Made by a program: the position numbers and the translations under genes. The notes under the pieces are model-generated. The model made no database searches and was not told the origin of the DNA. It saw only the letters and a list, made by a program, of their open reading frames with translations. Positions 34,470 to 53,870 of a DNA stretch of 64,000 nucleotides are shown here, in pieces. The stretch covers positions 101,475 to 165,474 of the forward strand of contig JAHCHE010000013.1 in NCBI GenBank assembly GCA_026129905.1. The letters are read 5' to 3'. This DNA comes from Bryobacteraceae bacterium (GTDB lineage Bacteria; Acidobacteriota; Terriglobia; Bryobacterales; Bryobacteraceae). The stretch's first letter is position 1; each line of letters begins with the position of its first letter.

Positions 34470-36305
34470 TCAGTTGCCTGTGACAACTATCTTGTAGCTG
34501 ACTTCGTTCCGATCAGGCTGCGCGGCGTAAACGTCGAGTCTCGCCGGCCCGTCGCTGCTCCAGGCCCTGAGAGTGCCGGTACGGCGCAGGCCCTCGACCG
34601 AGACCGAAGCCGCGCTCTCTGTCGCGCTTCTGACGCACAATTCGATGCGCTTTCCTGTCAGCGGCCCGCCAAGGGTATCTTCGATCTCAAAGGAGTCCTC
34701 GAACACTTCCACGCGGCGAAGCAGTTTGAAGCGCTTGTCGTGCGGAAAAGGATCGGAATCGGGTAGGCGCCGCTTATCGTGCGCCGCCCCTGGCCGGAAC
34801 AACTGCAGTAAGGCCGCCACGACCCCACGCAATCGAACGCGCTGCATTCCGTGTTCCGTCTTGACCCAGGTGTCGGACATGAAACAATCGCTCGGCCATG
34901 TCGGGGTCAACACGTAGGCGCCGTCAATCACCACGGGTATGAACCCCGTATATCGCGGGTCCAGTTCATCATTGCCAAGCGCATACCGGCGACTGATCTT
35001 CTGCGCGACGCGGAACAGACGGTTCCAACTCGTAGGTCTCACCACGGCGTCGCGAGAACATCGCCGGGGGATGGCGCCGACGGCCAACTTTTCGCCAACT
35101 TGGAAGCGGAGCACGGTCGGTCCGAAGTATCTACGGTCCCCTATCTCCTGCTGCGAACCCGTTCGGATAAACAGCTCCGCTTCGGAATGACTAAGCTTCG
35201 CGATGCCCAAGTCGCGGGAGAGGGCGCTGCGGGAACCGATGCTGGACTTCACGGGCGCGTCCGAGTTCATATCCGCATCCTGATACAGAACCTCGGCCAA
35301 AAGCACATACGCGGCGGAGGCGACCGAATACGTCGATGGGAGCGCGTAGACGTCTCTGGACCAGGCTTGCTCTTGTTTGTTGGATCCGCCGAACCGATTC
35401 GTCTGCAGGTAACCTTCCGGCGTCCGAGGAGTCGAGCGATAAACGGCCGTCAGCCTCCGGGCGTATTCCACGCAGTCCGCGCGCAGTTCTCCGTCCTGCG
35501 CCGCAGCCGCGCGCAAGCAGAACAAAGTCAGACCCGAGGCGAAAGTCGTGTTGTCCGATCGTCCGAAGTACGAGAAATTCCCATCTCGGGACATCAGTGG
35601 AAGGGCCGCTCGCATGCCATCGGCAAACCTGCATTTGAATCGCTCGTCTTCGGTCAGAGCGTGACATACCGCGAGCAGGAACAGGAACTTCATGCAATAC
35701 GCCAGAGGAAAGCGTCGGATGGCGCCGGTCGCCGCGAAGCGTGGCTCGTCATAGTAGAAACCGTCTGCGGATCGATACCGGTCGAGTTCGGCGAACAGGA
35801 AAGCGAGCCGGGACTCGCTCATCCCGCCGCCCGTGGCAACGGGGAGAAGCACGAAGTCATTAACCAGTTGCATGAAGTACATGTTGTTGCCGCTGGGATG
35901 GTCGAGCGCTTCCGCGTGGAAAGGTCTTGACGCTGCGCACAGCCGGCCTAATGTCTCCTGCAACCCAGTGCGTTCGATCCCGCTCCGCCGCGACAGGATC
36001 TGAGCGAGATAGATGGCCAGGGCGTTGAAGAAGCGTGCCGGATAGCCGCGCCGTTCCCACTGGCGCAACCGTAGATCAGCAAGCTCTAGCCGCTCCGAAG
36101 CTCGGCCATCGAGCAGGAAAATGAGCAACTGCGCAAGGGTATAGTGCGACGCAACGTACAGGTCCGTCGTCTCGTGGATGAGACCGCGGCCCGGTTCCAC
36201 GGCGCCGGCCTCGGTAAAACAGGGCGTGATCGCATCGATCACCTCACCGACGAAAACAGCGAGTTCCGAGGGCCCGGAGCCGTGCGATCGAAACGGAGGC
36301 GCCAT
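34470..36305 (-). CDS. Hypothetical cytoplasmic protein (611 aa), function unknown
   Basis: Long ORF with genome-typical codon bias and no signal peptide. Member of the minus-strand operon 33496..43489. Confidence 0.5.
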   Translation of the reverse strand: MAPPFRSHGSGPSELAVFVGEVIDAITPCFTEAGAVEPGRGLIHETTDLYVASHYTLAQLLIFLLDGRASERLELADLRLRQWERRGYPARFFNALAIYLAQILSRRSGIERTGLQETLGRLCAASRPFHAEALDHPSGNNMYFMQLVNDFVLLPVATGGGMSESRLAFLFAELDRYRSADGFYYDEPRFAATGAIRRFPLAYCMKFLFLLAVCHALTEDERFKCRFADGMRAALPLMSRDGNFSYFGRSDNTTFASGLTLFCLRAAAAQDGELRADCVEYARRLTAVYRSTPRTPEGYLQTNRFGGSNKQEQAWSRDVYALPSTYSVASAAYVLLAEVLYQDADMNSDAPVKSSIGSRSALSRDLGIAKLSHSEAELFIRTGSQQEIGDRRYFGPTVLRFQVGEKLAVGAIPRRCSRDAVVRPTSWNRLFRVAQKISRRYALGNDELDPRYTGFIPVVIDGAYVLTPTWPSDCFMSDTWVKTEHGMQRVRLRGVVAALLQLFRPGAAHDKRRLPDSDPFPHDKRFKLLRRVEVFEDSFEIEDTLGGPLTGKRIELCVRSATESAASVSVEGLRRTGTLRAWSSDGPARLDVYAAQPDRNEVSYKIVVTGN

Positions 36306-37481: not shown

Positions 37482-40169
37482 TCAGATGGGTCGAACCTGC
37501 ACCGGCTTCTTGTTGCCGGATAGGGATTCCACCCGGTAATACGCGATTCCGGGCGGAATCGTCGCGGAGACCTGGCACGACTGGTTAACGGCGCACGATA
37601 CCCAGCCTCCGAACGACGGAGACTGGATGCTGTCGCTCGTGCGGGAGTACGAAGCGCCGTAGGCGATGCGGAACTGACTCGTCTCCCGCGCCGTGAAGCC
37701 AACGCTTACGCTCTTGGAAGAACTCGCCGCCGAAGCCGTTGTGAAACTCCCTTCGTAGATAGGCCCGCAGTGCAGCCGGTACCAGTACGTCGTGCCGGCC
37801 GAGAGCCCGGTAATCACGATGTTCCGCCGGTTGCCGGGGCGCGGATATCCGTCGAAGATATCTGTCAGCCTGTTCGGATCTGACATCGATATGAGATTGT
37901 CGATGTCGCGCGTCGTCGAAACCTCCAACGAGCACGCAAGGTCGTACGCCACCAGCGGGGAATGCGCCCAGTACGAGAATAACGCCGAGTTGTTCGTCGC
38001 CGAGATCACCGGGCCTTCTCCGCCGGTCGGTTTTCGGATCAGCGGCAGCATCTGATAGTCCACGCCGATAGCCTCGCCTTCCGGTCCCCCCCGAAACGCG
38101 AAGTGATCGGTCCTCGGTTTCAATATCCCAAGTGACTTGTTCTGGAAGAGCTTTCCATGGGTCGGATCGTTGAAATCGAAATCGACATTGCAGGCGGCGG
38201 AAGTCGAGCACAGGTTGTAAACCGGACCCCCTTGCGTATAATTGCCCTTGTTCACGCCCGCGATGACGTTGAATCCCCATTCGTTGGACGTGCAGGATTG
38301 CCCATAACACAAGTGCGTGGTCAGAGTGTTATTGCCCTCGCTGGTAGTCGGATCGATGCCGGAGAGCCCGACCCCGCTCGATTTGGGCCAAATATTACCC
38401 CTTATCCGGCGGAGGCCCCGCCCGGTGACGTTGTTCGGGTTGCTCAGCAGCAGGCCGGTTGTAGGAGCGTTCTGCGAGTCCACGATCGTGTTATTCTCGA
38501 ACATCACTCCTGGAACGGCGTAAGCGAACCAGTTGAAGCCCCGGACCCCCAGGCCCCCGCAGCCTCCCCACACTTGGCAGTCGATCTCGCGAAAAAGATT
38601 GTTCTTAACGAGTAGATTCCCGATTCTCCATTGCATTCCGTTGTCGAACTGCACGACTTCCACTCCCATCGAGCTCTGCTCGACGATGTTATACATGAAT
38701 TTGTTGTCGCGGTCCGACGAAGCGAAACAATTCGACCACCCATACGAGTACGTCACGTTGCTTTGGACGCCAGCCGACGTGGTTAGTTGAAGCGTGTAGT
38801 CGTTGTCCCACACGAAGTCTCCTATCGTATAGCTCGTGCTTCCGATCGTGATCTTCCGCGGGTCCACGTTGTTCATGGTGAGCGGCAAGTGGTTATTGGG
38901 AATTGGATTTCCGTCCGCCGACGTCACCGTGACTCCATTGGTGTTGACCTTGCCTGTCATGAACGGAACGCACCGCTGATTCGACGACGTGTTCGGCGGA
39001 CTGTTGGATAGCTTGTAGACGATCGCCTGCACCTGGGCCTGGTTTGTGTATCCCCGGTATTGGTTCCAGGCATTGGTAACATTTCGCGAGTTTTTGGTTT
39101 CGTACAGGTTCTTCAAGATGATCTGAGACGATGCGCTGCTGGCTGCCACGCGGGTCCATGTGACCCCGTTATCATTGACGCTGCCGCTGGTCGGAAAGTC
39201 GGGCTGCGAACTTCCCGTCGTGCCGCTAGTCGTCGCCTTGAACCACCCGTTCGAATGTTTGACGTAGCGTCCTTTGAATACCGCGGTATTTGACTGCCAC
39301 ACCGGGTTGAGCGAATTCAGGCCAAGCATGCGCTCCGGGTGGTTGTAGAAGGCGTTCAAAATCATGGAGCCGGACGGCGACACGTCCCAGTTCGGCCCTA
39401 CGCCGCCGTGCATGATGGTCTCGCCGCCGGTGTCTCCAAGATAGTTGTTGAGTACGTCCACCGGCCCCGGTCCATTCATGATCAGGATGGCCTGCACCTC
39501 CACGCCCGGCCACCTGCCGCCAGCGATCCAGTTGTTGCGGACAAGCGCGCCTCGAGTGAACGCGCCGATGTACGCCGCCTGCTGGTTTACGTTCCAGTCC
39601 GGGTTCCGAAATATGCAGTGTTCCACGATGATGTCGTCGGGCTGGTCGCCGTCCGCGCTAGCGGTTCGCCCAAAAAGGGACGCGCCCACGCAGCCCAGCG
39701 TGAGGACTTGCGCGCCGGAGGTGCTCGAATCGAAGATCAGGCCGCGGATGCGAACGTGCTCCGCCGGCGGGCCGCACTGGACAAACAGCGCTCGCGTCCC
39801 GGCGTCGGCTCGCAGAACCGGCATTTTGCTCGCCCAGTGCTGCGTGATTCGTGTCATCTCGCGTGGCGGAAGCGAAGCGTCTTCCGTCGTCGTGAGCGTA
39901 AGATACCCGGACGTCCCGGGACGGCTTGGAATCTGCAAGGGCGTGGAGCCGACCGGGAATATCCGGCCGGCTTCCAGTTTGATCGTGTCGCCCCTGTATG
40001 CGTCGTTCAGCGCCGTCTGGATCTCCTGGACTTCGGCCCCGGTACATCTCGCGGCGGCGCACGTGATCGTGTACGTGCACGGGCGCGAGGAACAGTTCGA
40101 AGGCGATTTCTGCGTCGCCGCGTAAGCTCCAAAACTCGCGAGGAGGATCGGCAGGAAGATATGCTTCAT
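37482..40169 (-). CDS. Secreted right-handed parallel beta-helix (pectate-lyase-fold) protein, 895 aa
   Basis: Signal peptide MKHIFLPILLASFGAYAA. Many Asn/Gly/Thr-rich beta-helix rungs ('NNWIAGGRWPG', 'NNYLGDTGGETIMHGG', 'NNTIVDSQNAPTTG') and many Cys. Confidence 0.7.
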   Translation of the reverse strand: MKHIFLPILLASFGAYAATQKSPSNCSSRPCTYTITCAAARCTGAEVQEIQTALNDAYRGDTIKLEAGRIFPVGSTPLQIPSRPGTSGYLTLTTTEDASLPPREMTRITQHWASKMPVLRADAGTRALFVQCGPPAEHVRIRGLIFDSSTSGAQVLTLGCVGASLFGRTASADGDQPDDIIVEHCIFRNPDWNVNQQAAYIGAFTRGALVRNNWIAGGRWPGVEVQAILIMNGPGPVDVLNNYLGDTGGETIMHGGVGPNWDVSPSGSMILNAFYNHPERMLGLNSLNPVWQSNTAVFKGRYVKHSNGWFKATTSGTTGSSQPDFPTSGSVNDNGVTWTRVAASSASSQIILKNLYETKNSRNVTNAWNQYRGYTNQAQVQAIVYKLSNSPPNTSSNQRCVPFMTGKVNTNGVTVTSADGNPIPNNHLPLTMNNVDPRKITIGSTSYTIGDFVWDNDYTLQLTTSAGVQSNVTYSYGWSNCFASSDRDNKFMYNIVEQSSMGVEVVQFDNGMQWRIGNLLVKNNLFREIDCQVWGGCGGLGVRGFNWFAYAVPGVMFENNTIVDSQNAPTTGLLLSNPNNVTGRGLRRIRGNIWPKSSGVGLSGIDPTTSEGNNTLTTHLCYGQSCTSNEWGFNVIAGVNKGNYTQGGPVYNLCSTSAACNVDFDFNDPTHGKLFQNKSLGILKPRTDHFAFRGGPEGEAIGVDYQMLPLIRKPTGGEGPVISATNNSALFSYWAHSPLVAYDLACSLEVSTTRDIDNLISMSDPNRLTDIFDGYPRPGNRRNIVITGLSAGTTYWYRLHCGPIYEGSFTTASAASSSKSVSVGFTARETSQFRIAYGASYSRTSDSIQSPSFGGWVSCAVNQSCQVSATIPPGIAYYRVESLSGNKKPVQVRPI

Positions 40170-40179
40170 AACTGCTCCC

Positions 40180-41430
40180 TTACTGGAATTGAGGCTTCAC
40201 GTAGAAGCGCAGCATCAACTGGTACACACTCACCGTACCTGTGAAGTCGTCGATCGGCTTCGTAGGATCGCGGCTGATCCGGACGAACATCGTCCGTCGT
40301 TCGGCGCAGCCCGTCATGTTGAGGCTCGCAATACTGCTCGTCCGCTGCCTGTCGGCGGTCGGCAGTCCCGGCGTCAAACTCTGAGCCGAGTTGTACGCTG
40401 GATTCACGATATCTCCGTTATCCAGGACGCACGCGGTGTTGATATCGAACGCGACTGCGCTGCCTGTGCCCGCGCCTCGCGTCCACCGGAAAAGGAGTTC
40501 GACGCCGGTACCGTCCCACCCTTGGGGCACGGCAGTCTGCCACGTGGCCGACATCGACGCTATCCCGTCGGGGAACGTCAAGAAGCCGATTGTGTGCGGA
40601 TGCGTGCCGGCGGCGGCCTTGCTCGCTGCCTGCGTCGCAGGCAGGGATACTCCCATCAGGTCTTGCGTGCCGGCCGTTCGATCCACCGATACCGGAATCG
40701 CTTCCTTCTCAACCAACGTCCGGATCGTCGTCCATTTCAACCCCGTTGCTTCTTGTTCGTTGCTGACGAGGAATTGCTCGTTTGAGCCGACGGGCAGCGG
40801 GAAGTCGGTCGTCCCATCGTGCGTGTGAATGTCGCCCCGGTTGGACAGCGGCGTGCCTCCCGCTCCACAATCCCCCCATGTCCCATCCCCCTTGAGACAC
40901 TTGTACCCATCGCCCGGCTCCGGCCGCGGCACGGCGCCTTTCGACCCGCCGCCGCCGGAATCCCCAACCATCGTCGGCAACCAGTCGCGGTCCAGCGTCC
41001 CGACGCTCGTTGCCTTCGGTATCCCGTACGCCGTCGCTGTTGACGTCGCCACTTCATCTGCGCCTCCATGTTGATGCCTCGAGCGGTGGCTATCGCTGGC
41101 AAATCCCGTGTGACCCGAGGTCGCATAATCGAGGTTGCTGAGTTGCGAGTGATTCAGCGTCCCACCGCCGCTGTCCACCGGCTCCCACTCCGTTCCCGAT
41201 GCCTTGCACCGCAGCAGTCTTTGCCCTGCCGGCGCGTCCGTGTCGTTGAAAAACTCCTTCAGCGGCGTGCACGTCGCCGGAGGAGTAGGCCCGCTCTTGA
41301 TCGGCGACGTGGCGCCGGCATCGGAGTAATCCTGTATCGAACCTGTCTCGGCGACCGTGCCGTGGTCCTTCTTCTGACCCGAAAGTGAAATCGCTATCAG
41401 CACAGTCGTTATGTAAAGTCTCAATTTCAT
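40180..41430 (-). CDS. Secreted repeat protein with His-x-His motifs (paralog of 41483..43489)
   Basis: Signal peptide MKLRLYITTVLIAISLSG. Shared modules are 'NLDYATSGHTGFASDSHRSRHQHGGADEVAT...IPKA...LDRDWLP...GAVPRP..GDGYKCLKGDGTWGDCG'. Additional HTH/HPH triads are present. Confidence 0.7.
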   Translation of the reverse strand: MKLRLYITTVLIAISLSGQKKDHGTVAETGSIQDYSDAGATSPIKSGPTPPATCTPLKEFFNDTDAPAGQRLLRCKASGTEWEPVDSGGGTLNHSQLSNLDYATSGHTGFASDSHRSRHQHGGADEVATSTATAYGIPKATSVGTLDRDWLPTMVGDSGGGGSKGAVPRPEPGDGYKCLKGDGTWGDCGAGGTPLSNRGDIHTHDGTTDFPLPVGSNEQFLVSNEQEATGLKWTTIRTLVEKEAIPVSVDRTAGTQDLMGVSLPATQAASKAAAGTHPHTIGFLTFPDGIASMSATWQTAVPQGWDGTGVELLFRWTRGAGTGSAVAFDINTACVLDNGDIVNPAYNSAQSLTPGLPTADRQRTSSIASLNMTGCAERRTMFVRISRDPTKPIDDFTGTVSVYQLMLRFYVKPQFQ

Positions 41431-41482
41431 GACACCCTCTTTCTTACCCGCAACATGCAGCCGAATCGGACCGAGCCGGCGG

Positions 41483-43489
41483 CTAGAACATCAGGACCAC
41501 TTCGTACGCCCCGCCTTGCGAAACCGCCGAGTACACCACTCCCACGAGCCCGCTCGAAGGCTTAGTCGCGCCGGCGTCCCGGCAGTTCCCCGGCGTCGAA
41601 TTGCTGACCGCGACATAGCGCCCTGGCGTTGGCGGACTGTCGAACACGCACAGCGCCCGGCCGCGTATCGCGATGCGCGGCGATCCGGATGTCCCGCATG
41701 CCCCGGCGCATATCCCGAGCAGGTCGCCGCTGGAAGCGGGCGCTCGCACCGCTTTTACCGGGTCGCCGTTTGTCCACGACACCAGTTTGTTCAGCGTCGT
41801 CCCCGTCGCCGTGTCGTTTGCCACCGAGAAATCGAGATACTTGGTCCCCAGTCCCAGTTGATTGTTGCCGCTGAAGTTGTTGTCGTCGCCCTGGCATCCT
41901 ACGTACGAGCAGTCGACTTCCCATCGCATGTTCGGACTCGTCTTCGTGATCACGATCCCCGCTCCTGCCTGCGCGACGTACTCGTTCGTCAGCGTCGAAT
42001 TCGCGCTCGCGACCACGTACTCCGCATCGATCGGCCCGCCGCCACCGCCGCCGCTGCCTCCGTCGTTTCCGTCGCCCTGCAAAATCCACGTCCCCCCTTC
42101 ACAGGCGTACAGCCGCCGCCCCGAGAGAGCATTCGTGTTCAGGAACACTTCGCCCGTCACGCACGAGCCCGGCAGTCCCGCTCCACTCGGTATGCCGAGT
42201 TTGCCGCCGCCCAGATCGATCTTCCCGGTGTGGGCAATCGTGCTCCCGCTGACAGACGTCCCCGTTACTCCGCCCAGCACCCCGGAACTGTTGTACTGAA
42301 GTTGCCCGCTCGCGCCGCCCGGCGCCCCGCCGGTGCCGGTTCCGCAGGCGCCCCACGTCGCATCGCCCTTCAGACACTTGGATGCGTCGCCCGCCGCCGG
42401 CACCGGTACCGCGCCCGTTTGCCCTCCGCTGCCCTGGTCACCCGTCATCGCAGGCAGTTGAGCGCGGCTGATCTTCACAGCGGCGTCCAGCCCGGCGTAC
42501 CCCGAAGCCTGGTTTTTGCGCGATAGCGCCTCGTAGACGCCGCTGAGGTCCGGCATCCAACCGGCGGCGAGTTTACCGCTGGCATCCGCTTTGGGTATCG
42601 CGTTAGCCCCGGGCGTTCCTGTCGCCACCTCGTCTCCGCCTCCGTGTCGATGCCTCGATCCGTGATTCTCCGCCGCGAAACCCACATGGCCGGAATTGGC
42701 GTAATCCAGATTGGTCAGTTGCGAATGGTCCATCGTTCCGCCGCCCGCGCCTCCGCTCCCCTGAAGCCGCGAGATCATGATCCGCCCCGCAGTGGCCTTC
42801 GACCAGGTAACCGTAACGTCCCCGGTCGATTTCCCTATCTCAACCGAAGCCGGCGAGATCCGGTTCCACTTCGCCCCGCCATCCGATTGCGCAAATACCT
42901 CTACGTTCGCTCCCAATCCATGCGTGGTCCCCGCGATCGTCCAGGGGTTCGACGCCCCCAGGAATTGTTGGATGTAGGGCGCCGGAGAAGCTCCGCCGCA
43001 GTCGCCCCACGCGCCGTTCCCTTTGAGACACCTTTCGGCGTCGCCCGCTCCGGGGGCCGGCACCGCTCCGCTCTGTCCTCCCGCGCCGTCGTCGCCGGTC
43101 ATCTCCGGAAGCCAGTTCCGGTCCAGTTTGCCGTCGCTCTTTGCCTTCGGAATCACGTTGGCGCCCGCCGTGGCGCTCGCCACCTCGTCGACGCCGCCGT
43201 GCTTATGCGCCGCTGCGTGCAACTCCGCGCTGTTAACCCGTGTCCACGAGTTCACCGCCGTGCAAAGGTAGAGGTTTTGTCCTGCGCTGGCGTCGCTCTT
43301 GAAGAATGCTTGCCCGATCGAGCAAGTCCCCGGAAGCGTCGTTCCGACGGTAAACGGTTTCGTCGCCGCCGCGCTGCCAAAATCAACGTTCCGGCCCTGG
43401 GCCTTGAGGTCCACCCGTGTTTCGCTGAAACTGGGCGCCGCCATGGCCAGAACCAGCAGCGCGCCGCGCATAGGTCCGTGAACAATCAT
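41483..43489 (-). CDS. Secreted repeat protein with duplicated HxHGG-DEVA / CLKGxGxWGxCG modules
   Basis: Signal peptide. Two copies of '...H.HGG.DEVA..T.GAN.IPKA...GKL...W.P...GD.G.GGQ.GAVP.P.AGDA..CLKG...WG.CG'. Two copies of 'G(T/S)C..G..F....A.(A/S)G..LY.C'. Confidence 0.7.
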   Translation of the reverse strand: MIVHGPMRGALLVLAMAAPSFSETRVDLKAQGRNVDFGSAAATKPFTVGTTLPGTCSIGQAFFKSDASAGQNLYLCTAVNSWTRVNSAELHAAAHKHGGVDEVASATAGANVIPKAKSDGKLDRNWLPEMTGDDGAGGQSGAVPAPGAGDAERCLKGNGAWGDCGGASPAPYIQQFLGASNPWTIAGTTHGLGANVEVFAQSDGGAKWNRISPASVEIGKSTGDVTVTWSKATAGRIMISRLQGSGGAGGGTMDHSQLTNLDYANSGHVGFAAENHGSRHRHGGGDEVATGTPGANAIPKADASGKLAAGWMPDLSGVYEALSRKNQASGYAGLDAAVKISRAQLPAMTGDQGSGGQTGAVPVPAAGDASKCLKGDATWGACGTGTGGAPGGASGQLQYNSSGVLGGVTGTSVSGSTIAHTGKIDLGGGKLGIPSGAGLPGSCVTGEVFLNTNALSGRRLYACEGGTWILQGDGNDGGSGGGGGGPIDAEYVVASANSTLTNEYVAQAGAGIVITKTSPNMRWEVDCSYVGCQGDDNNFSGNNQLGLGTKYLDFSVANDTATGTTLNKLVSWTNGDPVKAVRAPASSGDLLGICAGACGTSGSPRIAIRGRALCVFDSPPTPGRYVAVSNSTPGNCRDAGATKPSSGLVGVVYSAVSQGGAYEVVLMF

Positions 43490-43829: not shown

Positions 43830-45284
43830 TTGCCCGGCCCTGCTGCGACAACCCCAATCTGGCAGCGGTTCACCCGGCCGGCTGGCCGTGGGGAGGCGCC
43901 CGTCCCTGCGGCGGTTCCGCCGGCGCCTGCGTCTGCTCCGGTCGAGGCCGTACCCTTCAGCCTCTTTCACAAAGCCGGCTTCTTCTCTCTGCTCATCTTC
44001 GTACCCATCGTCTTCAGCCGAATCAACGAGTTCCTCCGCATCCCCAATCTCGTTTTCTCCACCGTCTCCGTCTGCCTCGCCACCAGCATTCTCACCGGCG
44101 CCGCCTATCGCGCCGCCACTTCGCGGCCCGGCAAGCTCCTGCTGTTGTTCACCGTTTGCATCGTCGCTTCCGTTCCGTTCAGCGTTTGGCGAGGCGGCAG
44201 CTATGAGGTCTTAGCCAAAGACTGGGTAATATCCCTCCTGGTCTTCTTCGCCATAGCGGGATCGGTCCACACCTTCGAGCAATGCCGCAAAGCGATGTAT
44301 GCGATGGCGCTCGGCGGGATGCTCATCCTGCTCCTTAGCGTCCGCTTCGGCTCCAGCGCGGCCGGACGCTTCGCCTTCATGTGGGGCACTCTCGGCAATC
44401 CCAACGATTTCGCCACCTATCTCATCATGGGCCTGCCGTTCTGCCTTTTCGTCTTTCTCAACGATACCCGCCTGCCGTTGCGCGCGGTCGCCGCTCTGTC
44501 CGGCCTCGGCATTCTCGTCTACGGCCTTAGGTCCGGTTCGCGCGGCGGCATGGTCGCTCTTGTCGGACTTGTCTTTGTTCTCTTTCTGAAACTCTCCCTG
44601 GCGGACAAATTCAAGCTCCTCGCCGCCGGCGCCCTCGTGTTCCCCGTCGTCCTCGCCCTCGTCCCGCGCGACACCCTCCAGCGGCTCGTCACGTTTGGAA
44701 TCTCCAGCGAGGAGGATCGTGAAGACAACCGTCAGGTCGGTCTTGCCACCTCCTCCTACAATGCCCGCCGCCGCCTCATGCAGGACGCCATCAAGGTCAC
44801 CCTCCAGAATCCCGTGGTCGGCGTCGGCGCCGGCCAGTTTCAGGTCGCCGCCACCCGGTTGGCGGAAGATCGCGGCATCGTCGCCATGTGGCGCGAAACC
44901 CATAACGGTTATCTGCAGGTTTCCAGCGAGTGCGGCATTCCTGCCCTGCTGATCTACCTCGGCTTATTCGCCTATTGCTTTCGTACCCTTACCGAGCTTC
45001 GCAAAGCCGCCGCTCCGCATCCGGCCCTCGCCACCATATCCAAGATGGCAATGTGCCTGTTCATGGCTACGGCGATTTTCGCCGTCGTCAGTCTCTTCGG
45101 CAGCTACGGCTATACCATGCTCCTGCCCGTTCTGTGCGCGTTCACGTATGTCCTTCAAACTACTGCGGAGCCCGTCATTCGCGCTGCGTTGGCGTCGTCT
45201 CCCCCCGCACCGAATGTCCCTTCAGGTCCACTGCCGCCGCGAGCCCGTCCATTGATGCCTCGATTGCCCCTAATGAGGTTCTGA
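43830..45284 (+). CDS. O-antigen ligase / Wzy-like polymerase family membrane protein (TTG start with GGAGG SD)
   Basis: Polytopic; O-antigen-ligase-like region 'AALSGLGILVYGLRSGSRGGMVALVGLVFVLFL...NPVVGVGAGQFQV...HNGYLQV'. Confidence 0.7.
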   Translation: MPGPAATTPIWQRFTRPAGRGEAPVPAAVPPAPASAPVEAVPFSLFHKAGFFSLLIFVPIVFSRINEFLRIPNLVFSTVSVCLATSILTGAAYRAATSRPGKLLLLFTVCIVASVPFSVWRGGSYEVLAKDWVISLLVFFAIAGSVHTFEQCRKAMYAMALGGMLILLLSVRFGSSAAGRFAFMWGTLGNPNDFATYLIMGLPFCLFVFLNDTRLPLRAVAALSGLGILVYGLRSGSRGGMVALVGLVFVLFLKLSLADKFKLLAAGALVFPVVLALVPRDTLQRLVTFGISSEEDREDNRQVGLATSSYNARRRLMQDAIKVTLQNPVVGVGAGQFQVAATRLAEDRGIVAMWRETHNGYLQVSSECGIPALLIYLGLFAYCFRTLTELRKAAAPHPALATISKMAMCLFMATAIFAVVSLFGSYGYTMLLPVLCAFTYVLQTTAEPVIRAALASSPPAPNVPSGPLPPRARPLMPRLPLMRF

Positions 45285-45285
45285 T

Positions 45286-47223
45286 ATGTGTGGAATTGCT
45301 GGCTTCGTCAAGGGTGAAGGCGACTCCGGCGCCGCCCGCGTCATTGCTCGCATGACGGATGTGATCCGCCACCGCGGGCCGGACGATAGCGGAACCTATG
45401 AGGACGCGTGGGTTGCGCTAGGCCATCGCCGCCTGAGTATCATCGACCTTGCCGCCGGCCACCAGCCGATGGAAAACGAGGATGGTTCCGCCTGGATCGT
45501 TTTCAACGGCGAGATCTTCAACCATGCCGACCTTCGCGCTGAACTGGAGCGCCTCGGCCATCGCTTTCGCACCCGCTGCGATACCGAAACCATCCTGCAT
45601 GCCTACGAAGAGTACGGCCCCGCATGCCTCGATCGCTTGCGCGGCATGTTCGCCTTCGCCGTCTGGGACCGCGACGCCCGCACGCTGTTCTGCGCCCGCG
45701 ACCGGCTCGGAAAGAAGCCCCTCTATTACGTCTGGGACGGACGCCGCTTCGCGTTCGCCTCGGAGATCAAGGCCCTCCTGCAGCACCCCGACCTCGCCGC
45801 TTCACTTGACGCCTCCGTCCTCCCCGAGTACCTGAGCCTCGGCTACTCTTGCGACGATCGGACTCTGTTTCGCGGCATCCGTAAGTTGATGCCGGGACAT
45901 TACCTCATCCTCCGCTGCTCCGCGGAAGGCCCTTCCCTCGAAACCAGCGCTTACTGGGACCTCCCGTTTCCGGATCCGCCCGAGCTCCGCTCGGACGAGT
46001 CCTGGATCGAAGAGTGCCGCCTGCGCCTCGAAGACGCCGTCAGCACCCGCCTGATGAGCGATGTTCCCCTCGGCGTTTTCCTGAGCGGCGGCGTGGATTC
46101 CAGCGCTATCACCGCCGTCATGAAGCGCATCGTTGCGGGTCCTGTCAAGTCCTTCTCCGTGGGCTACGCCGAAACGGCTTACAGCGAGTTGTCCTACGCC
46201 CGCCGCGTGGCGCAACATCTCGGCGTCGACTATCACGAAGTCCTCATCTCCCGGGACGATTTCTTCCGCGCCCTCCCCAGCCTCATCTGGCACGAGGATG
46301 AGCCGATCGTCTGGCCCTCCAGCGTCTCTCTCTACTACGTGTCCAGGCTCGCCGCCGAACAAGTGAAGGTCGTCCTTACCGGCGAAGGCGGAGACGAGTT
46401 GTTCGCAGGCTATGCTCGTTACCGTCGCCACGCCTTGAATGAACGGTTGCGGCCCGCCTTTCGCCTCCTTCCGTCCGCGCTCAGGAACCGGATCCGAAAC
46501 TGGATCGTTGCCTCGAACCTCCTTTCGGCCGGCCTCCGCCGAAAACTCGGCCACACCCTGCTCGGTCGCGAAGATAACCTCGAATCCCTCTACCTCGACA
46601 ACTTCTACTCGGCTTTCCCCCGCAACGGCCGCGAGCGTCTCCTCCAAAACGGCGCCGCCCCCCCTTACAACAACTTCCTCGCCTACTGGAGCCGCGAACC
46701 CCGGCGCTCCCTTCTCGAGCGAATGTTGTACGCCGACCAGAAAACCTATCTGGTCGAACTCCTGATGAAGCAGGACCAGATGAGCATGGCGACCTCCATT
46801 GAGTCCCGCGTCCCGCTCCTTGATCATCTGTTCGTTGAGTTCGCCGCTCGGGTCCCCCAGAGCCTCAAACTCCGTAACGGCGGCGGCAAGCGCATTCTCA
46901 AGAAGGCCGTCGAAGATCTCCTTCCTCAAGACATCCTCTACCGAAAGAAGATGGGATTCCCCACCCCCTTGCGCGCGTGGCTCCAGCATCCCGACGCGGG
47001 CTGGGTCGCGTCCACCCTCCTCCGTCCCGACAGCCTCCTCGGCGATTATCTCGACTTGAACGCCGTACGTTCGCTCCTCGAACGCCACCAGAGCGGCGCC
47101 GAGGACGCCACCGACTCCATCTGGCGCCTCCTCAACCTGCAGCTTTGGGGCGACGTCTTCCTCAGCGACGGCGTGGCGCCGCAGTTCGAACAGCGTTTCG
47201 CCCCTCTGCCGGTTTTCTTGTAG
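45286..47223 (+). CDS. asnB: Asparagine synthase (glutamine-hydrolysing), exosortase-locus-associated amidotransferase
   Basis: Starts 'MCGIAGF' (Cys2 nucleophile); 'LSGGVDSSAI' PP-loop; 645 aa. Confidence 0.9.
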   Translation: MCGIAGFVKGEGDSGAARVIARMTDVIRHRGPDDSGTYEDAWVALGHRRLSIIDLAAGHQPMENEDGSAWIVFNGEIFNHADLRAELERLGHRFRTRCDTETILHAYEEYGPACLDRLRGMFAFAVWDRDARTLFCARDRLGKKPLYYVWDGRRFAFASEIKALLQHPDLAASLDASVLPEYLSLGYSCDDRTLFRGIRKLMPGHYLILRCSAEGPSLETSAYWDLPFPDPPELRSDESWIEECRLRLEDAVSTRLMSDVPLGVFLSGGVDSSAITAVMKRIVAGPVKSFSVGYAETAYSELSYARRVAQHLGVDYHEVLISRDDFFRALPSLIWHEDEPIVWPSSVSLYYVSRLAAEQVKVVLTGEGGDELFAGYARYRRHALNERLRPAFRLLPSALRNRIRNWIVASNLLSAGLRRKLGHTLLGREDNLESLYLDNFYSAFPRNGRERLLQNGAAPPYNNFLAYWSREPRRSLLERMLYADQKTYLVELLMKQDQMSMATSIESRVPLLDHLFVEFAARVPQSLKLRNGGGKRILKKAVEDLLPQDILYRKKMGFPTPLRAWLQHPDAGWVASTLLRPDSLLGDYLDLNAVRSLLERHQSGAEDATDSIWRLLNLQLWGDVFLSDGVAPQFEQRFAPLPVFL

Positions 47224-47225
47224 GG

Positions 47226-48341
47226 ATGGCTGCCATCGTCTTCTGGTCGTCGCTCGCCGTCGTTCTCTACGTCTATCTCGCCTACCCAGCCCTCCTCAGG
47301 ATTCTGGCCGTCTTCTTTCGTCGCCCGGTCGCCAAAGCCCCCATCCTTCCATCCGTCTCCCTTGTCATTCCCGCCTATAACGAACAGCGCGTCATCGAAG
47401 CCAAGCTCCGCAACGTTCTTTCGGTCGACTACCCAGCGGAAAAGCTCGAAATAGTTGTCGTCTCGGACGGCTCCACCGACGCGACCAATGCCATCGTCGA
47501 AAAATACGCCTCCGCCGGCCGCGTCCGCCTGTTCGCCTTCGCTCAAAACCGCGGCAAAATCGCGGCGCTCAACGACGCGTTTCCCCATCTGCGCGGAGAA
47601 ATCGCCGCCCTTTCCGACGCCTCCAGCATGCTCGCTCCCGATGCCTTGCGCGTTCTCGTCTCCAGCTTCGCCGACCCCTCCGTCGGGGCGGTCAGCGGCC
47701 TCTACCGCGTTCGCCGCCAGCGCGAGGCCGAACTCGGCGAGCAGGAAGGCTTCTACTGGAGTTACGAAAGCTGGCTCAAAACATTGGAGGCGGAACTCGA
47801 CTCCATCCTCGGCGCCCATGGCTCGCTCTACGCCATCCGCACGAAACTCTATCCGTTTCCCGAGCCCGGCGCGATCAACGACGACTACATCATCCCCGTC
47901 CGGATCATCCAAAAGGGATACCGCGCCGTGTATGACACCCGCGCCCTCGCCTACGAAGAAGCGCTCGAGATGACCGGTTTCAAACGTCGCATCCGGATCA
48001 TGACCGGCAATTTCGAGCAGCTCAGCGAGCTTCGTCCTCTAATCTGGCACCCGCGCTGGCTGCCTCTATTCTTCTTTCTGTCTCATAAGGCCGGCCGGCT
48101 GGCTGTCCCCCTGGCCATGCTGGCCCTGTTCGCTTCCAACATCTTCCTCCTGGCCCAGCCGTTCTACCTCGCCGCGTGGATCGCGCAATTGCTTTTCTAC
48201 GGCGTCGTCGTCGTAGGAGCTCTATGGCCCGTGAACTCCCGGCTGCTGCGGCTGCCCTACTACTTCTGCATGATCAACGCGGCGGCCTTCTTCGGGCTTT
48301 ACTACGCTTTGATCGCCCGCCGTAAAATGGCCTGGAAGTAA
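47226..48341 (+). CDS. Family 2 glycosyltransferase (membrane-anchored)
   Basis: 'SLVIPAYNEQRVIEAKL...EIVVVSDGSTD' DxD-type GT2 motifs with C-terminal TM segments. ATG 47226 lies 2 nt after the asnB stop. Confidence 0.85.
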   Translation: MAAIVFWSSLAVVLYVYLAYPALLRILAVFFRRPVAKAPILPSVSLVIPAYNEQRVIEAKLRNVLSVDYPAEKLEIVVVSDGSTDATNAIVEKYASAGRVRLFAFAQNRGKIAALNDAFPHLRGEIAALSDASSMLAPDALRVLVSSFADPSVGAVSGLYRVRRQREAELGEQEGFYWSYESWLKTLEAELDSILGAHGSLYAIRTKLYPFPEPGAINDDYIIPVRIIQKGYRAVYDTRALAYEEALEMTGFKRRIRIMTGNFEQLSELRPLIWHPRWLPLFFFLSHKAGRLAVPLAMLALFASNIFLLAQPFYLAAWIAQLLFYGVVVVGALWPVNSRLLRLPYYFCMINAAAFFGLYYALIARRKMAWK

Positions 48342-48407: not shown

Positions 48408-49307
48408 GTGTCCATTGTCGTCGGCCGTCCCGTTCGGGACGATGCTCCACCTCGTACCGGGGCCCCGTTTGACTGGCCCGTCGTCGCGTGGTTCGCCATC
48501 CTGTTGATCGCCGCCTACGCTCAGGTCCTTTACCGTCTGCTTCAGCAGTGGTGGGCGGACCCCGATATGGGTCACGGCTTCTTTGTCCCCATCATTGCCG
48601 CCGTCATCGCCTGGGGCAGGCGCGATCGACTCCGATCCCTTGCACTGTCCACGAACTGGTGGGGACTGGCGCTCGTCGTGTGGGCGTCCGTCCAGCTCCT
48701 CATAGGCCTTTTGGGCGCCGAACTCTTTCTGACCCGTACCGCATTCCTGATCGCCCTCATCGGCGCCGTGCTCTTTTTGGGTGGCGCTGGACTCGTGCGC
48801 TCGTTGGCTTTCCCGCTGTTCCTGCTGTTCTTCATGGTTCCCATTCCCAAGGTGATCTTCAATCAGGTCGCCCTGCCCCTCCAGTTGCTTGCCAGCAACC
48901 TTGCTGAGGCCTTTCTAGGGGCCATCGGCGTGCCCGTCTTGCGCGAGGGCAATATCCTCGAACTCGCCAGCCAGCGCCTGAACGTCGTCGAAGCGTGCAG
49001 CGGCATTCGCTCGCTGCTGTCGCTTTCGTTTCTCGCCCTCGTCTACGCTTACTTCTTCGATTCCAAACCCTGGATGCGCGCCGTCCTCCTCCTCGCCAGC
49101 GCTCCCATCGCCATCCTCGCCAACGCAGGCCGCGTTGCCATCACCGGCATCCTCAGCGAACGCAATGCCGAACTCGCCGACGGCTTCTTCCACGCCGCCG
49201 AAGGCTGGGTCATTTTCGTTATCTCGCTCGCCGCCCTGTTCCTGGCGCACCGGCTGATTGACGTTTCCATCAACGGAGTCTCGCGTCTTGTTCGCCGTCC
49301 CCGATAG
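48408..49307 (+). CDS. Exosortase (EpsH/XrtA-like)
   Basis: 'WWADPDMGHGFFVPIIAAVIAWGRRDRL...' followed by 8 TM helices. Conserved Cys/Arg region 'ASQRLNVVEACSGIRSLLS...ANAGRVAITGIL'. Confidence 0.85.
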   Translation: MSIVVGRPVRDDAPPRTGAPFDWPVVAWFAILLIAAYAQVLYRLLQQWWADPDMGHGFFVPIIAAVIAWGRRDRLRSLALSTNWWGLALVVWASVQLLIGLLGAELFLTRTAFLIALIGAVLFLGGAGLVRSLAFPLFLLFFMVPIPKVIFNQVALPLQLLASNLAEAFLGAIGVPVLREGNILELASQRLNVVEACSGIRSLLSLSFLALVYAYFFDSKPWMRAVLLLASAPIAILANAGRVAITGILSERNAELADGFFHAAEGWVIFVISLAALFLAHRLIDVSINGVSRLVRRPR

Positions 49308-49959
49308 ATTTCGCTTTCTGAACTGGCGTCCCGCCCGCGTGTTGACCCTCGCGTTGGTCGCCCACATCGTCCTTGTGAACGCCTTTTCCCGAAAGGAGAC
49401 TCCGCCCCCGCCTCCTCCTCTTCGCGAGTTCCCCGCCAGTCTGGATGACTGGCGAATGGTGCACGAGGGAACCGTCGTTCGCGAAGTCCAGGATGTCCTT
49501 CGGGCCGATGAAACCCTTACGCGGACGTACTTCGGACGCGACGGCCGGGCGGCCTCCCTCTTTGTCGCCTTCTTCCGATCTCAGCGCGCCGGCGTCAACC
49601 CGCACTCTCCCAAGAACTGCCTGCCGGGCTCGGGCTGGCTTCCGCTGGAATCCGGGATCGTCTCCATTCCCTTGCCCGGCCGCTCCGTTCCGCTCCAGGC
49701 GAATCGTTACCTCATCGCCAAGGGAGACAGCAAGAGCGCCGTCCTCTATTGGTACCAGACGCGCGATCGAACGATTGCCAGCGAGTACGTCGCCCGCTTC
49801 TACCTCGTGCTGGACGCCATCCGCTCCAACCGCACCGACACCTCCCTGATCCGGATCTCCGTCCCTGTCGTCGGCGAAAACGTCGACGGCGCGTTCGACG
49901 CCGCGGTCGCCTTTGCGCAGATCGCCTTCGAGCCCCTCTGCCTGATCCTCCCGTCCTGA
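49258..49959 (+). CDS. EpsI-family exosortase-associated protein (start uncertain; overlaps the exosortase 3' end)
   Basis: N-terminal TM (ARVLTLALVAHIVLV) then a periplasmic domain. The exosortase-EpsI adjacency is characteristic. Confidence 0.7.
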   Translation: MTFPSTESRVLFAVPDRFRFLNWRPARVLTLALVAHIVLVNAFSRKETPPPPPPLREFPASLDDWRMVHEGTVVREVQDVLRADETLTRTYFGRDGRAASLFVAFFRSQRAGVNPHSPKNCLPGSGWLPLESGIVSIPLPGRSVPLQANRYLIAKGDSKSAVLYWYQTRDRTIASEYVARFYLVLDAIRSNRTDTSLIRISVPVVGENVDGAFDAAVAFAQIAFEPLCLILPS

Positions 49960-50034
49960 GGACATCCCCTCGGCGTCTCCAGTTCCTATGGGAGAGAAAT
50001 GCCGCCATCCTCCAACTACTCCCGTGGGGAGTCC

Positions 50035-50499
50035 ATGAGCGCCTGCCAGACCCAACACTTCGGCGTGATCGAGTACCTCCCCGATCAGGTGGTTACGTTC
50101 CCCGTCGGGCTGCCGGCCTTTGAAGACGAGCGTCAGTTCGTGCTGATCGAGCAGTCGGCCACCATCCCCGTGATCTTTCTTCAGAGCCTCGCCCGGCCAG
50201 ACCTGGCCTTTATCACCCTTCCTATGGCCGTCGTCGAACCTTCTTATCGGTTGAGCGTGTCGCCCGAAGACCTCGAGCTCCTTCAGCTTCCGCCCGACAT
50301 CCCGGCGACCTCCCCAGAGAACGTTCTCTGCCTCGCCATCGTCACCGTGCCCGAGGCCGGGCCGCCCACCGCGAACCTCATGGCGCCTGTCGTCATCTGT
50401 CGCGAGAGCCGTTGCGCCGTGCAGGCGATCCAGTCCGATTCGGCGTACTCTCACCAGCACGTCCTGCCGGCGACCTCCCCGGAGGAACGATGCTCGTAA
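50035..50499 (+). CDS. fliW: Flagellar assembly factor FliW
   Basis: 'MSACQTQHFGVIEYLPDQVVTFPVGLPAFEDERQFVLIEQ...PVIFLQSLARPDLAFITLP...TANLMAPVVI' is the FliW signature. It overlaps the csrA start. Confidence 0.8.
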   Translation: MSACQTQHFGVIEYLPDQVVTFPVGLPAFEDERQFVLIEQSATIPVIFLQSLARPDLAFITLPMAVVEPSYRLSVSPEDLELLQLPPDIPATSPENVLCLAIVTVPEAGPPTANLMAPVVICRESRCAVQAIQSDSAYSHQHVLPATSPEERCS

Positions 50500-50720
50500 T
50501 TCGCAGAAAGCCCGGCGAATCCATCCTCATCGGCGAGGACATCGAGATCCAGGTCATCGATATCTCTCCTTCCCGCGTCCGCATCGGCATCTCCGCGCCC
50601 TCCAGCGTGCTCATCCTCCGCAAAGAGATCCAGTTGGCACAGCGCCAAAACCTCGCCGCGGCCCTCCGCTTCTCCCCTGACGCCGTCCGCTCCGTCCTCT
50701 CCCGTTTCCCCGCCCGCTGA
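50490..50720 (+). CDS. csrA: Carbon storage regulator CsrA (with C-terminal extension, FliW-partner type)
   Basis: 'MLVIRRKPGESILIGEDIEIQVIDISPSRVRIGISAPSSVLILRKEI' with a GGAGG SD at -9. Confidence 0.85.
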   Translation: MLVIRRKPGESILIGEDIEIQVIDISPSRVRIGISAPSSVLILRKEIQLAQRQNLAAALRFSPDAVRSVLSRFPAR

Positions 50721-53800: not shown

Positions 53801-53870
53801 GGCCGGCATCGCCGCCTTGGCCCAGGCCAATTCGGCGCCGCAGACCGTCCTCAGCCTGCTCCGCGGGTAA
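50847..53870 (+). CDS. Flagellin, giant (1007 aa) with very long Ala/Gly/Thr/Ser-rich variable region
   Basis: Conserved D0/D1 N-terminus (MAYSINTNVTSLQAQDYLRISSEFQSKTINRVTSGLRIISSGDDAAGLAIANSL...) and C-terminus (...QNRFNFAVNLAQTQLNNLAASESRIRDADLALEAANLTKAQIMQQAGIAALAQANSAPQTVLSLLRG). About 700 aa of insert lie between them. Confidence 0.9.
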   Translation: MAYSINTNVTSLQAQDYLRISSEFQSKTINRVTSGLRIISSGDDAAGLAIANSLRSDRAVITQGVRNANDGLSTLQTIDGGINNISQLLDRARTLAAQSASGTFSGNRNVLNSEFESVILEIDRQAQAIGLDQGGSFAKNLTVFIGGGRSNSGVSEIANGSLSVDLSQSTVDSKSLGLKGVQALGAPGTDIGTGSVSTSVGQILADLSNLNDLTTANYTVFKFYGPGFGDGDGVAISVNTQGVTDTDTLVTAINAAIESAGNGGSTAATAFKNANIVASVNTDSAGRKQLAFSSSSTAFQVKAGDKMANALMGNFGVGATGADMSTTVTADVASAAGSAAFGAAGAGDIVFRFQGAGMTSPLELTVSVAAATTVAEAIADLSTQVVNNATLKAAGISLTSASAGSALEFTSTRSEQFDVQVSNDKLNHLGFGSFLAGVNAAFDYASITASANYSTASVGSATFEVSINGGASNTNAMVVNLAGGDATAATVSGTDTALTVDTTGGANLFRLAVDGSVYAIALTANATASKITLANDINTAVGATIASVGADGKLVLASTTKGAASTIQILAGTANAVLGFTEGDVVTGASRSGASVADALNAAIAADAELSAAGLVADFGVTAAGKISINSSNGTYFRLNTFGDVAAATAMGTKAATYDTTGGNNVLTIAVDGGLAQTVTLTAGAARTAAQIVQDINDADIGVTASVVTHGGVNFVQVVSDTTGAASSLEFGGTARTIIGFAATAYDGTEANAGYGVAGQTFAGNVASAAPATAAQFNAGGSQATAALAFQPLAYGNDDQTITISANDNAGVQQSKTIVLKNDGASDRYGRNIDQVLDKINADLQQTNNQTLQKIVAVKVNDGGVEKIQFLSSLGAFQVSIGQTPDGNGIGAQGSTQSSQALDGGSVAAIDTQAGGEAAVAALANAVAALGEAQAVVGKGQNRFNFAVNLAQTQLNNLAASESRIRDADLALEAANLTKAQIMQQAGIAALAQANSAPQTVLSLLRG

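Follow-up and report, generated by a model that had tools for sequence, protein, structure and literature searches.

Three adjacent genes of a Bryobacteraceae bacterium, referred to here as A, B, and C, lie on the minus strand of a 64,000-nucleotide stretch of DNA (the window; contig JAHCHE010000013.1 of GenBank assembly GCA_026129905.1, positions 101,475 to 165,474). Gene B (41483..43489) encodes a predicted secreted, mosaic, fiber-like protein of 668 residues and is a 100% match to the NCBI entry KIT09_17430 of a Bryobacteraceae metagenome-assembled genome (MAG); gene A (40180..41430) encodes a shorter paralog of 416 residues (KIT09_17425). Both entries are annotated as hypothetical. Gene C (37482..40169) encodes an 895-residue protein with a signal peptide, a four-Cys N-terminal motif, a right-handed beta-helix (residues ~20–720), and two FN3-like domains (~721–895). 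The gaps between the genes are short (52 nt from B to A and 10 nt from A to C), and no terminator-like site was found between B, A, and C on the minus strand. An earlier reading made from the sequence alone, here called the original prediction, had placed the open reading frames (ORFs) of A and B at these positions and had described a co-operonic beta-helix neighbor, and on both points it was borne out.

The N-termini of A, B, and C share one layout: a basic residue, a hydrophobic stretch, and then a small-residue cleavage site. That of A reads MKLRLYITTVLIAISLSG with QKK after the cleavage site, and that of B reads MIVHGPMRGALLVLAMAAPSFS with ETR after it (residues 1–22; 43424..43489, on the minus strand as are all features of A and B given below); both are Sec-signal-like, as had been proposed. 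Here and throughout, signal peptides were called by reading the sequence by eye and with a crude heuristic. The homologs of B begin with the same pattern, ending in A-Q directly before TRIDL. A lipoprotein reading of A and B was ruled out, the lipobox Cys being absent. PEP-CTERM exosortase substrates were also considered and rejected; none of the three C-termini (A, ..LRFYVKPQFQ; B, ..AYEVVLMF; C, ..KKPVQVRPI) shows a PEP motif, transmembrane helix, or basic tail.

Following the signal peptide, B opens with an N-terminal Cys-loop module (residues 23–90; 43220..43423; C56...C76) and a first copy of a fiber module, module 1 (residues 84–168; 42986..43240), in which motif 1b (HAAAHKHGGVDEVA...IPKA) is followed by motif 1c (LPxMxGDxGxGGxxGAVPAPxxGD..CLKGNGAWGDCG). 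Next comes a middle beta-rich domain (residues 169–250; 42740..42985), a block that is conserved in B-like proteins and recurs in relatives, and then a second copy of module 1 (residues 249–386; 42332..42745) comprising motif 1a (DHSQLTNLDYANSGHVGF), motif 1b (HGSRHRHGGGDEVA), a 33-residue insert, and a motif 1c ending in CLKGDATWGACG. A second Cys-loop module (residues 408–470; 42080..42268; C443...C463) and a Cys-containing C-terminal domain (residues 480–668; 41486..42052), a candidate tip or binding domain, complete the protein. Gene A encodes one Cys-loop module (residues 34–86; 41173..41331; C54...C75), one module 1 (residues 88–192; 40855..41169) with motifs 1a, 1b (HRSRHQHGGADEVA), and 1c (CLKGDGTWGDCG), and a C-terminal domain (residues 195–416; 40183..40848) whose last ~130 residues are modeled as a jelly-roll beta-sandwich. 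A and B are paralogs, as the original prediction held: they align at E 7e-35 (N-terminal ~160 residues, 45% identity), and the module of A aligns with the second copy in B at E 4e-30. Within B, the two copies of module 1 align at E 2e-28 and the Cys-loop modules (residues 30–90 and 408–470) at E 8e-9. The larger paralog had been said to carry the full module twice; both modules are indeed duplicated, but the first copy of module 1 lacks the SGHxGF part and the second contains the 33-residue insertion.

Module 1 is made up of three sub-motifs, each of which is found independently in other proteins. Their consensus sequences are DHSxLxNLDYxxSGHTGF for motif 1a, H-x3-H-x2-GG-x-DE-[VI]-A...IPKA..G.L..W for motif 1b, and LPxMxGDxGxGGxxGxVPxPxxGD..[C/F]L[K/R]GDGTW for motif 1c. 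The N-terminal Cys-loop module follows the consensus TRIDLxxQGRNVDF..TKP..GTxLPxxCxxGxxFFKxDAxxGxNLYxC..W, and the C-terminal domain of B follows N..TGT..N.L.KLTG...IGIC..GCGT.G.A.IA..G.A.C.FDG.TTAG.YV..S...G.C.DAG...P. A profile built from 32 copies of motif 1b matched the tail fiber gp42 of Haloferax tailed virus 1 (HFTV1) in two tandem stretches each of the structures 9h7v (E 1.2e-8) and 9h5b (E 5.2e-7). Moreover, proteins with repeated motifs 1b or 1c and no signal peptide match PHROG tail-fiber, minor-tail, and tail-collar families as well as the Pfam families Collar, Mtd_N, Gly_rich_2, and DUF5907. As judged from these profile comparisons, the modules of A and B are homologous to the shaft motifs of phage tail fibers, a relationship that goes beyond the resemblance first proposed.

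Collar, Mtd_N, DUF5907, Gly_rich_2, and Peptidase_S74 are absent from A and B and were seen only in distant relatives. Pfam and NCBIfam scans of A and B, whole or in pieces, gave no match, in the case of Pfam even at E up to 10, and PHROG scans of the two proteins and of eight sub-fragments gave only weak matches of unknown function. PDB sequence searches with A and B, and profile searches with motif 1c and with the C-terminal domain of B, found nothing; the N-terminal Cys-loop module matched nothing in Pfam, PHROG, or the PDB, and the middle domain of B nothing in Pfam or PHROG. A possible resemblance of the C-terminal domain of B to DUF2190 was given no support by HMMER.

The original prediction had drawn attention to five HxH triads in A and B. 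All five are present and exceed the expectation from shuffled sequence (three against 0.21 in A, P 0.0007; two against 0.16 in B, P 0.01), but they are unevenly conserved. HTH (202) and HPH (277) of A are not kept among its three orthologs, and the third His of motif 1b is retained in 41 of 79 copies from relatives, the others carrying mostly Asn (24), Asp (7), or Ser (4); Ser also stands there in one of the three A orthologs. The invariant core of motif 1b is instead H-x3-H-x2-(G)G-x-D-E (H, H, G, D, and E in the profile). HFTV1 gp42 forms a homotrimer composed of base, beta-helix, stalk, and head, with Zn assigned to His ligands in octahedral geometry (PMC12494034). Two His residues per chain in a trimer would supply six ligands, which makes the invariant HxxxH a natural candidate for an octahedral metal site, and metal binding at the HxxxH of A and B is plausible on the strength of the shared motif. 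The likeness to gp42 lies in the shared H-x3-H-x2-GG-x-DE-I; gp42 is a Zn/His homotrimer, and A and B would be trimeric as well. Only ~20–45 residues are common to the two, gp42 is an archaeal virion protein with no reported signal peptide, and its base and head are unrelated to A and B.

A second comparison, the one made in the original prediction, was with the T4 type of fiber. In the tips of T4 gp37 and gp12, His residues of three chains bind metal along the fiber axis. The principle of a metal on the axis is possibly common to both systems, but the T4-type reading itself was not sustained: each module of A and B has a single HxxxH(x)H, with no HxH array in tandem, the third His varies, and no T4 fiber chain was returned by phmmer and profile searches of the PDB with A, B, motif 1b, motif 1c, and the HxH-repeat segment of P0011. 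The last of these belongs to a group of relatives (P0011, P0012, P0013, and P0060) that carry true tandem HNHDxxY repeats in place of motif 1b; a PDB profile search with the P0011 segment likewise found nothing.

The modules belong to a very large family. An exhaustive HMMER search with B returned 4,629 representative clusters at E<=1e-3, 1,552 at <=1e-10, and 52 at <=1e-30. The description of A and B as an undescribed family is therefore right in that neither matches Pfam or NCBIfam, but has to be recast, as they are mosaics of modules that occur in about 4,600 clusters. When segments of B, together with the C-terminal domain of A, were mapped on 203 relatives (N-terminal module, middle domain, motifs 1a, 1b, and 1c, and the two C-terminal domains), the pieces were found to shuffle freely and to repeat in tandem. 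About 128 of these relatives have signal-peptide-like N-termini. The Cys-loop module directly follows the signal peptide in dozens of relatives, often in tandem, and the C-terminal domain of B recurs in many, either singly or in tandem. Any Pfam match was obtained for only 7 of 63 scanned family members. One superfamily member carries Collagen and one Peptidase_S74, both hallmarks of trimeric fibers, and some members are fused to a Pect-lyase, GDSL lipase, or PL4 domain. Paralogs occur elsewhere in the same MAG (P0005 and P0078). For A, an index of 5.8 billion proteins yielded only three full-length orthologs besides its own NCBI entry (P0057). One contig (L005, 1-15246) carries at least seven consecutive genes with signal-peptide-like N-termini, including a B-like, an A-like, a 968-residue same-module, and a Pect-lyase protein; many small ORFs and a helix-turn-helix gene follow this block, which may belong to a phage, an island, or ordinary chromosome, and no exopolysaccharide (EPS) genes were called nearby.

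One variant of the shaft motif is associated with the putatively exported members of the family. Motif 1c ends in CLKGDGTWGxCG in A, B, and close relatives and in FLRGDGTWxx[V/P] in phage copies. The Cys-pair form tracks signal-peptide-like N-termini (15/18 versus 5/13 proteins, Fisher P 0.02), also when counted per motif copy (P 4e-6). The Cys-loop module likewise is bounded by Cys residues. On this sequence pattern, the Cys-paired modules may be regarded as tail-fiber modules adapted through putative disulfides to extracytoplasmic life.

Structure prediction gave different results for the parts of A. The AlphaFold2 (AF2) monomer model, based on 18 sequences, has a mean pLDDT of 54.6, with the fiber module region below 50; such low values would fit an oligomerization-dependent fiber and a disordered region alike. 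Residues 283–411 form a beta-sandwich with a pLDDT of 65–82. In a Foldseek search of the PDB, this sandwich matched the Fbs1 sugar-binding domain, CBM11/15/22/61, Bd1399, and the Klebsiella phage Kp7 fiber gp52, at E about 1e-4. The modeled C-terminal jelly-roll of A is thus similar to carbohydrate-binding modules and lectins. Short genes, termed A', at three of the loci described below (L001, L002, and L006) also retain this domain.

For C, the AF2 model is of high quality (pLDDT 89.1, pTM 0.90) and consists of a right-handed beta-helix and two FN3-like domains. Its nearest structural neighbors are AlgE, RbmB, and alginate lyases, with general carbohydrate-active enzymes (CAZymes) close behind; the fold also matches many phage tailspikes. 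C shares only 16% identity with RbmB, and alginate lyase and AlgE4 reach equal scores. Pfam and NCBIfam hold no family for C, PDB sequence and profile searches returned nothing, and in PHROG one weak match was obtained (phrog_6005, 'virion structural protein', E 7e-4). The NCBI model of C (KIT09_17415) is 780 residues long, as against 895 for the ORF in the window. The additional N-terminus, comprising the signal peptide and CSSRPCTYTITCAAxxC, is kept in more than 20 homologs, and its modeled pLDDT exceeds 90, so that the start codon in the public record probably lies too far downstream.

Opposite these genes, on the plus strand, lies an operon for polysaccharide synthesis. Divergent from B is a gene for a Wzy_C / O-antigen-ligase-like membrane protein (43830..45284; Pfam Wzy_C E 6e-17, weak TIGR03097), which is syntenic in L001, L002, and L006. 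It is followed by an AsnB-like amidotransferase of the XrtA/PEP-CTERM-system type (45286..47223; TIGR03108 at 595 bits, under the cut-off of 817) and a family-2 glycosyltransferase (GT2; 47220..48341). The latter is most similar to the processive synthases PgaC and NodC, a hint, at the level of sequence, of a synthase-type polymer. Further downstream are an exosortase (EpsH family) and EpsI (48408..49959; Exosortase_EpsH E 5e-69, DUF3485/EpsI E 2e-49, TIGR02602 and TIGR02914 above their cut-offs).

The same arrangement, with Wzy-like, AsnB-like, (GT4), and GT2 genes opposite B, C, and A-type genes, was found in five Bryobacteraceae-type contigs: the window, L001, L002, L006, and a JGI contig. 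The gene order is B, C, A' in L001, L002, and L006, where A' combines the Cys-loop module with the A C-terminal domain and has no fiber module. In the window, L002, and L006, an exosortase gene lies next to these genes. A genome scan with a narrow alignment (A8), which relies on short exact patterns, led to four loci. The B proteins of the five contigs are 42–86% identical, and their genes are under purifying selection, with dN/dS from 0.07 (for the pair of 86% identity) to 0.44; for the C genes, the values are 0.21–0.43. A, B, and C are, on this evidence, working host genes tied to the neighboring polysaccharide operon.

These observations bear directly on the possibility that the genes are a decaying remnant of prophage tail-fiber and tailspike genes that came to lie near EPS genes by chance and have no function in the host. 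Close homologs of B and C (37–43% identity, near full length) do occur in the phage or mobile-element contigs L003, L004, L011, and L012, and C of the window shares 45% identity with the L003 copy but only 35–38% with the chromosomal copies of L001 and L002. A remnant is nonetheless highly improbable: a scan of the window revealed no other phage gene within about 10 kb, the arrangement recurs opposite the same operon in five contigs despite the divergence of their B proteins, the ORFs are all intact with dN/dS down to 0.07, and signal peptides and conserved Cys patterns are kept in all three genes. The original prediction that the proteins are host-encoded accordingly stands with respect to this conserved non-phage locus; the check for homologs in phage positions revealed in addition that phage structural modules contain close relatives of B and C.

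A B-like and a C-like gene are direct neighbors in L004, their products sharing 37–43% identity with B and C along most of the sequence; genes for a major head protein, an exonuclease, tail and virion proteins, and SU10-type adaptors are found on the same contig. Directly upstream of a C-like gene, L011 and L012 (both from IMG/VR) encode a protein with the B C-terminal domain; L011 also carries terminase, portal, major head, and virion structural protein genes. L003, an element rich in small ORFs that also encodes VRR_NUC and a 3,428-residue ParB/AAA protein, likewise has the B-like and C-like genes next to each other. In each of the four contigs, the B-like and C-like genes and those directly beside them make up a signal-peptide- and Cys-rich block (L004 10001-14711, L011 7782-14437, L012 7152-12885, and L003 2398-6906): clear signal-peptide-like N-termini are found on the B-like and C-like products and on those of one to three genes next to them, and every B-like or C-like gene encodes 13–24 Cys residues. 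The identified virion proteins of these contigs have 0–8 Cys, mostly 0–4, and no signal-like N-terminus; the heuristic also flags a few other genes as signal-bearing, all of them Cys-poor. No match to B or C was obtained with tblastn among 50,697 GenBank phage records. In their adjacency within the structural modules of L004, L011, and L012, the B-like and C-like genes recall the pairs of tail fiber and tailspike or depolymerase of phages, from which they differ in that both host and phage copies have signal-like N-termini and 13–24 Cys and that no N-terminal virion-attachment domain was recognized.

A tentative and rather doubtful explanation is that host and phage share one exported EPS-handling cassette, consisting of a disulfide-rich, fiber-like lectin and a tailspike-like enzyme. 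In the tailed phages (L004, L011, and L012), its genes stand within the virion structural module, where no other block is both Cys-rich and equipped with signal peptides. Either the receptor-binding proteins of the phage would mature outside the cytoplasm, or the phage would secrete a receptor-destroying or matrix-remodeling system, captured from or donated to a host EPS locus. The occurrence of homologous exported B and C cassettes in host and phage, and the position of the host cassette beside genes for the probable receptor, could also be read as defense, with the secreted fiber and depolymerase masking or trimming the EPS receptor or competing with virions. We consider such an anti-phage decoy very unlikely. 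It is purely inferential, no defense hallmarks or neighboring defense genes were seen (no dedicated defense-system search was made), and stable synteny with strong purifying selection suits a housekeeping role in the matrix better than an arms race.

Among characterized systems, the closest in design are the MAT fibers of Bdellovibrio bacteriovorus, which have a signal peptide, an invariant N-domain, a trimeric fiber, and lectin tips and for whose ~130-residue N-terminal domain no structural homologs in the PDB were reported (PMC10769870). Like A and B, they are host-encoded and combine a signal peptide and a conserved N-terminal module with a fiber-like shaft and swappable lectin-type tips in a mosaic repertoire; one relative in the A/B family carries Peptidase_S74, as the S74 MATs do. 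They differ in that the N-terminal module of A and B is a Cys-loop, the shaft motifs are of the putative disulfide type, and the setting is an EPS locus with a beta-helix enzyme in Acidobacteriota instead of predation. At the sequence level, A and B did not match the MAT fragments in the PDB, and the match of the A tip to Bd1399 (8okh, E 9e-4) is a generic jelly-roll match among many carbohydrate-binding modules.

The parallel with MAT fibers, the size of the mosaic superfamily with its swapped tips, the fusions to Pect-lyase, GDSL lipase, and PL4 domains, the paralogs P0005 and P0078, and the secreted-protein island of L005 would all fit A, B, and C being adhesins or degradative tools directed at the surfaces of other microbes or at environmental polysaccharides and not at the EPS of the cell itself, in the manner of MAT fibers or of secreted systems that pair CAZymes with carbohydrate-binding modules. 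This explanation is unlikely, as at every chromosomal locus examined the trio of B, C, and A-type genes accompanies the EPS operon. The nearest structural neighbors of C are enzymes of EPS loci, which also speaks against a foreign target, although general CAZymes follow closely. For a role in the cell's own matrix, a functional parallel exists. The rbm cluster of Vibrio cholerae encodes RbmA, RbmC, and Bap1 together with the lyase RbmB between the vps operons. As an analogy, A and B with C may correspond to these matrix proteins and a lyase (RbmB being PDB 9ozd) in an EPS locus; C is much larger than RbmB and has two FN3-like domains, and A and B are likened to RbmA, RbmC, and Bap1 by role only.

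On balance, we favor with modest confidence a reading in which A and B are exported fibers, most likely trimeric, that form with C a cassette for binding and for cutting or epimerizing the polysaccharide of the adjacent operon. In this scheme, A and B would be exported via Sec, with the Cys-loop module probably forming the cell-proximal or anchoring end. Tail-fiber motifs would make up the shaft, in which HxxxHxxGGxDE[VI] is probably a His-metal site on the three-fold axis and the Cys pairs could form disulfides outside the cytoplasm, and the variable C-terminal beta-sandwich tips would bind sugar. C would act as an exported beta-helix enzyme of the alginate-lyase/AlgE/RbmB/tailspike type that cuts or epimerizes the polymer made next door. 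Together, the three proteins may bind, organize, and trim the matrix polysaccharide of the Wzy-like/AsnB-like/GT2 (exosortase-linked) operon, and phages of related bacteria carry the same cassette, presumably for use against the same polymer.

Several points weigh against this cassette reading. The trimer, the metal, the disulfides, glycan binding, the substrate, and the location at the cell surface are all inferred, and a Sec signal alone takes A, B, and C only to the periplasm of a diderm cell, no outer-membrane route having been identified. The poor AF2 monomer model of A leaves the fold of the fiber module unsupported. Neither the C-terminal domain of B nor the N-terminal module has a structural or functional relative in Pfam, PHROG, or the PDB. 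The modeled fold of C would suit a lyase, an epimerase, or a hydrolase alike. No exosortase adjoins the cassette in L001 and the JGI contig, and synteny, while it suggests a link of B, C, and A-type genes to EPS, falls short of proof.

Few soil bacteria are as abundant as the Acidobacteriota, whose EPS is important for the aggregation of soil but has no known matrix proteins. For one conserved locus, the cassette offers candidate EPS-binding fibers and a candidate EPS lyase or epimerase. Host-encoded, tail-fiber-like fibers are of a known kind; what is unusual here is that they are exported, Cys-rich, EPS-linked, and common to phages. The idea of bacterial 'domesticated tail fibers', so far shown in Bdellovibrio, would thereby be extended to another phylum and another role. 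The analysis also defines domain families outside Pfam, namely the N-terminal Cys-loop module, the B C-terminal domain, and a Cys-stapled variant of FLRGDGTW, with thousands of clusters. The signal-bearing phage copies point to gene exchange between host EPS loci and the receptor-binding modules of phages, and the sharing of the cassette could help to link uncultured phages to their hosts and receptors. At the same time, export signals on the phage-borne B-like and C-like proteins are a puzzle for virion structural modules.

Several further features were noted around the cassette. A second C-like paralog lies a few kb away from it, on the opposite strand (here the minus strand), in L001 (19484-21896), L002 (14921-18355), and L006 (15591-18290); it is 1,144 residues long in L001 and L002, with a C-like match of similar extent in L006, and JGI assigns the L001 copy to the TIGR03437 family. 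In the window, a 611-residue ORF (34470-36305, minus strand) lies two genes downstream of C, with a methyltransferase gene between them; it matches neither Pfam nor NCBIfam and is missing from the syntenic loci. The GT2 ORF was listed as 46977-48341 (plus strand) and as such overlaps the end of the AsnB-like gene by ~250 nt; translation probably begins around 47220. A literature search on exosortase in Acidobacteria and Bryobacter found nothing relevant. Beyond the exosortase genes, a FliW ORF and a CsrA-sized ORF (49999-50499 and 50412-50720; CsrA named by analogy with L001) precede a giant flagellin gene (50847-53870, plus strand), whose product of 1,007 residues has Flagellin_N and Flagellin_C ends and an insert of ~800 residues. 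Flagellin glycosylation was considered as a role for the operon, which has flagellar genes beside it in the window and L001 but none in L002 and L006. In L001, the flagellar layout is the same, and the flagellin is 808 residues long.

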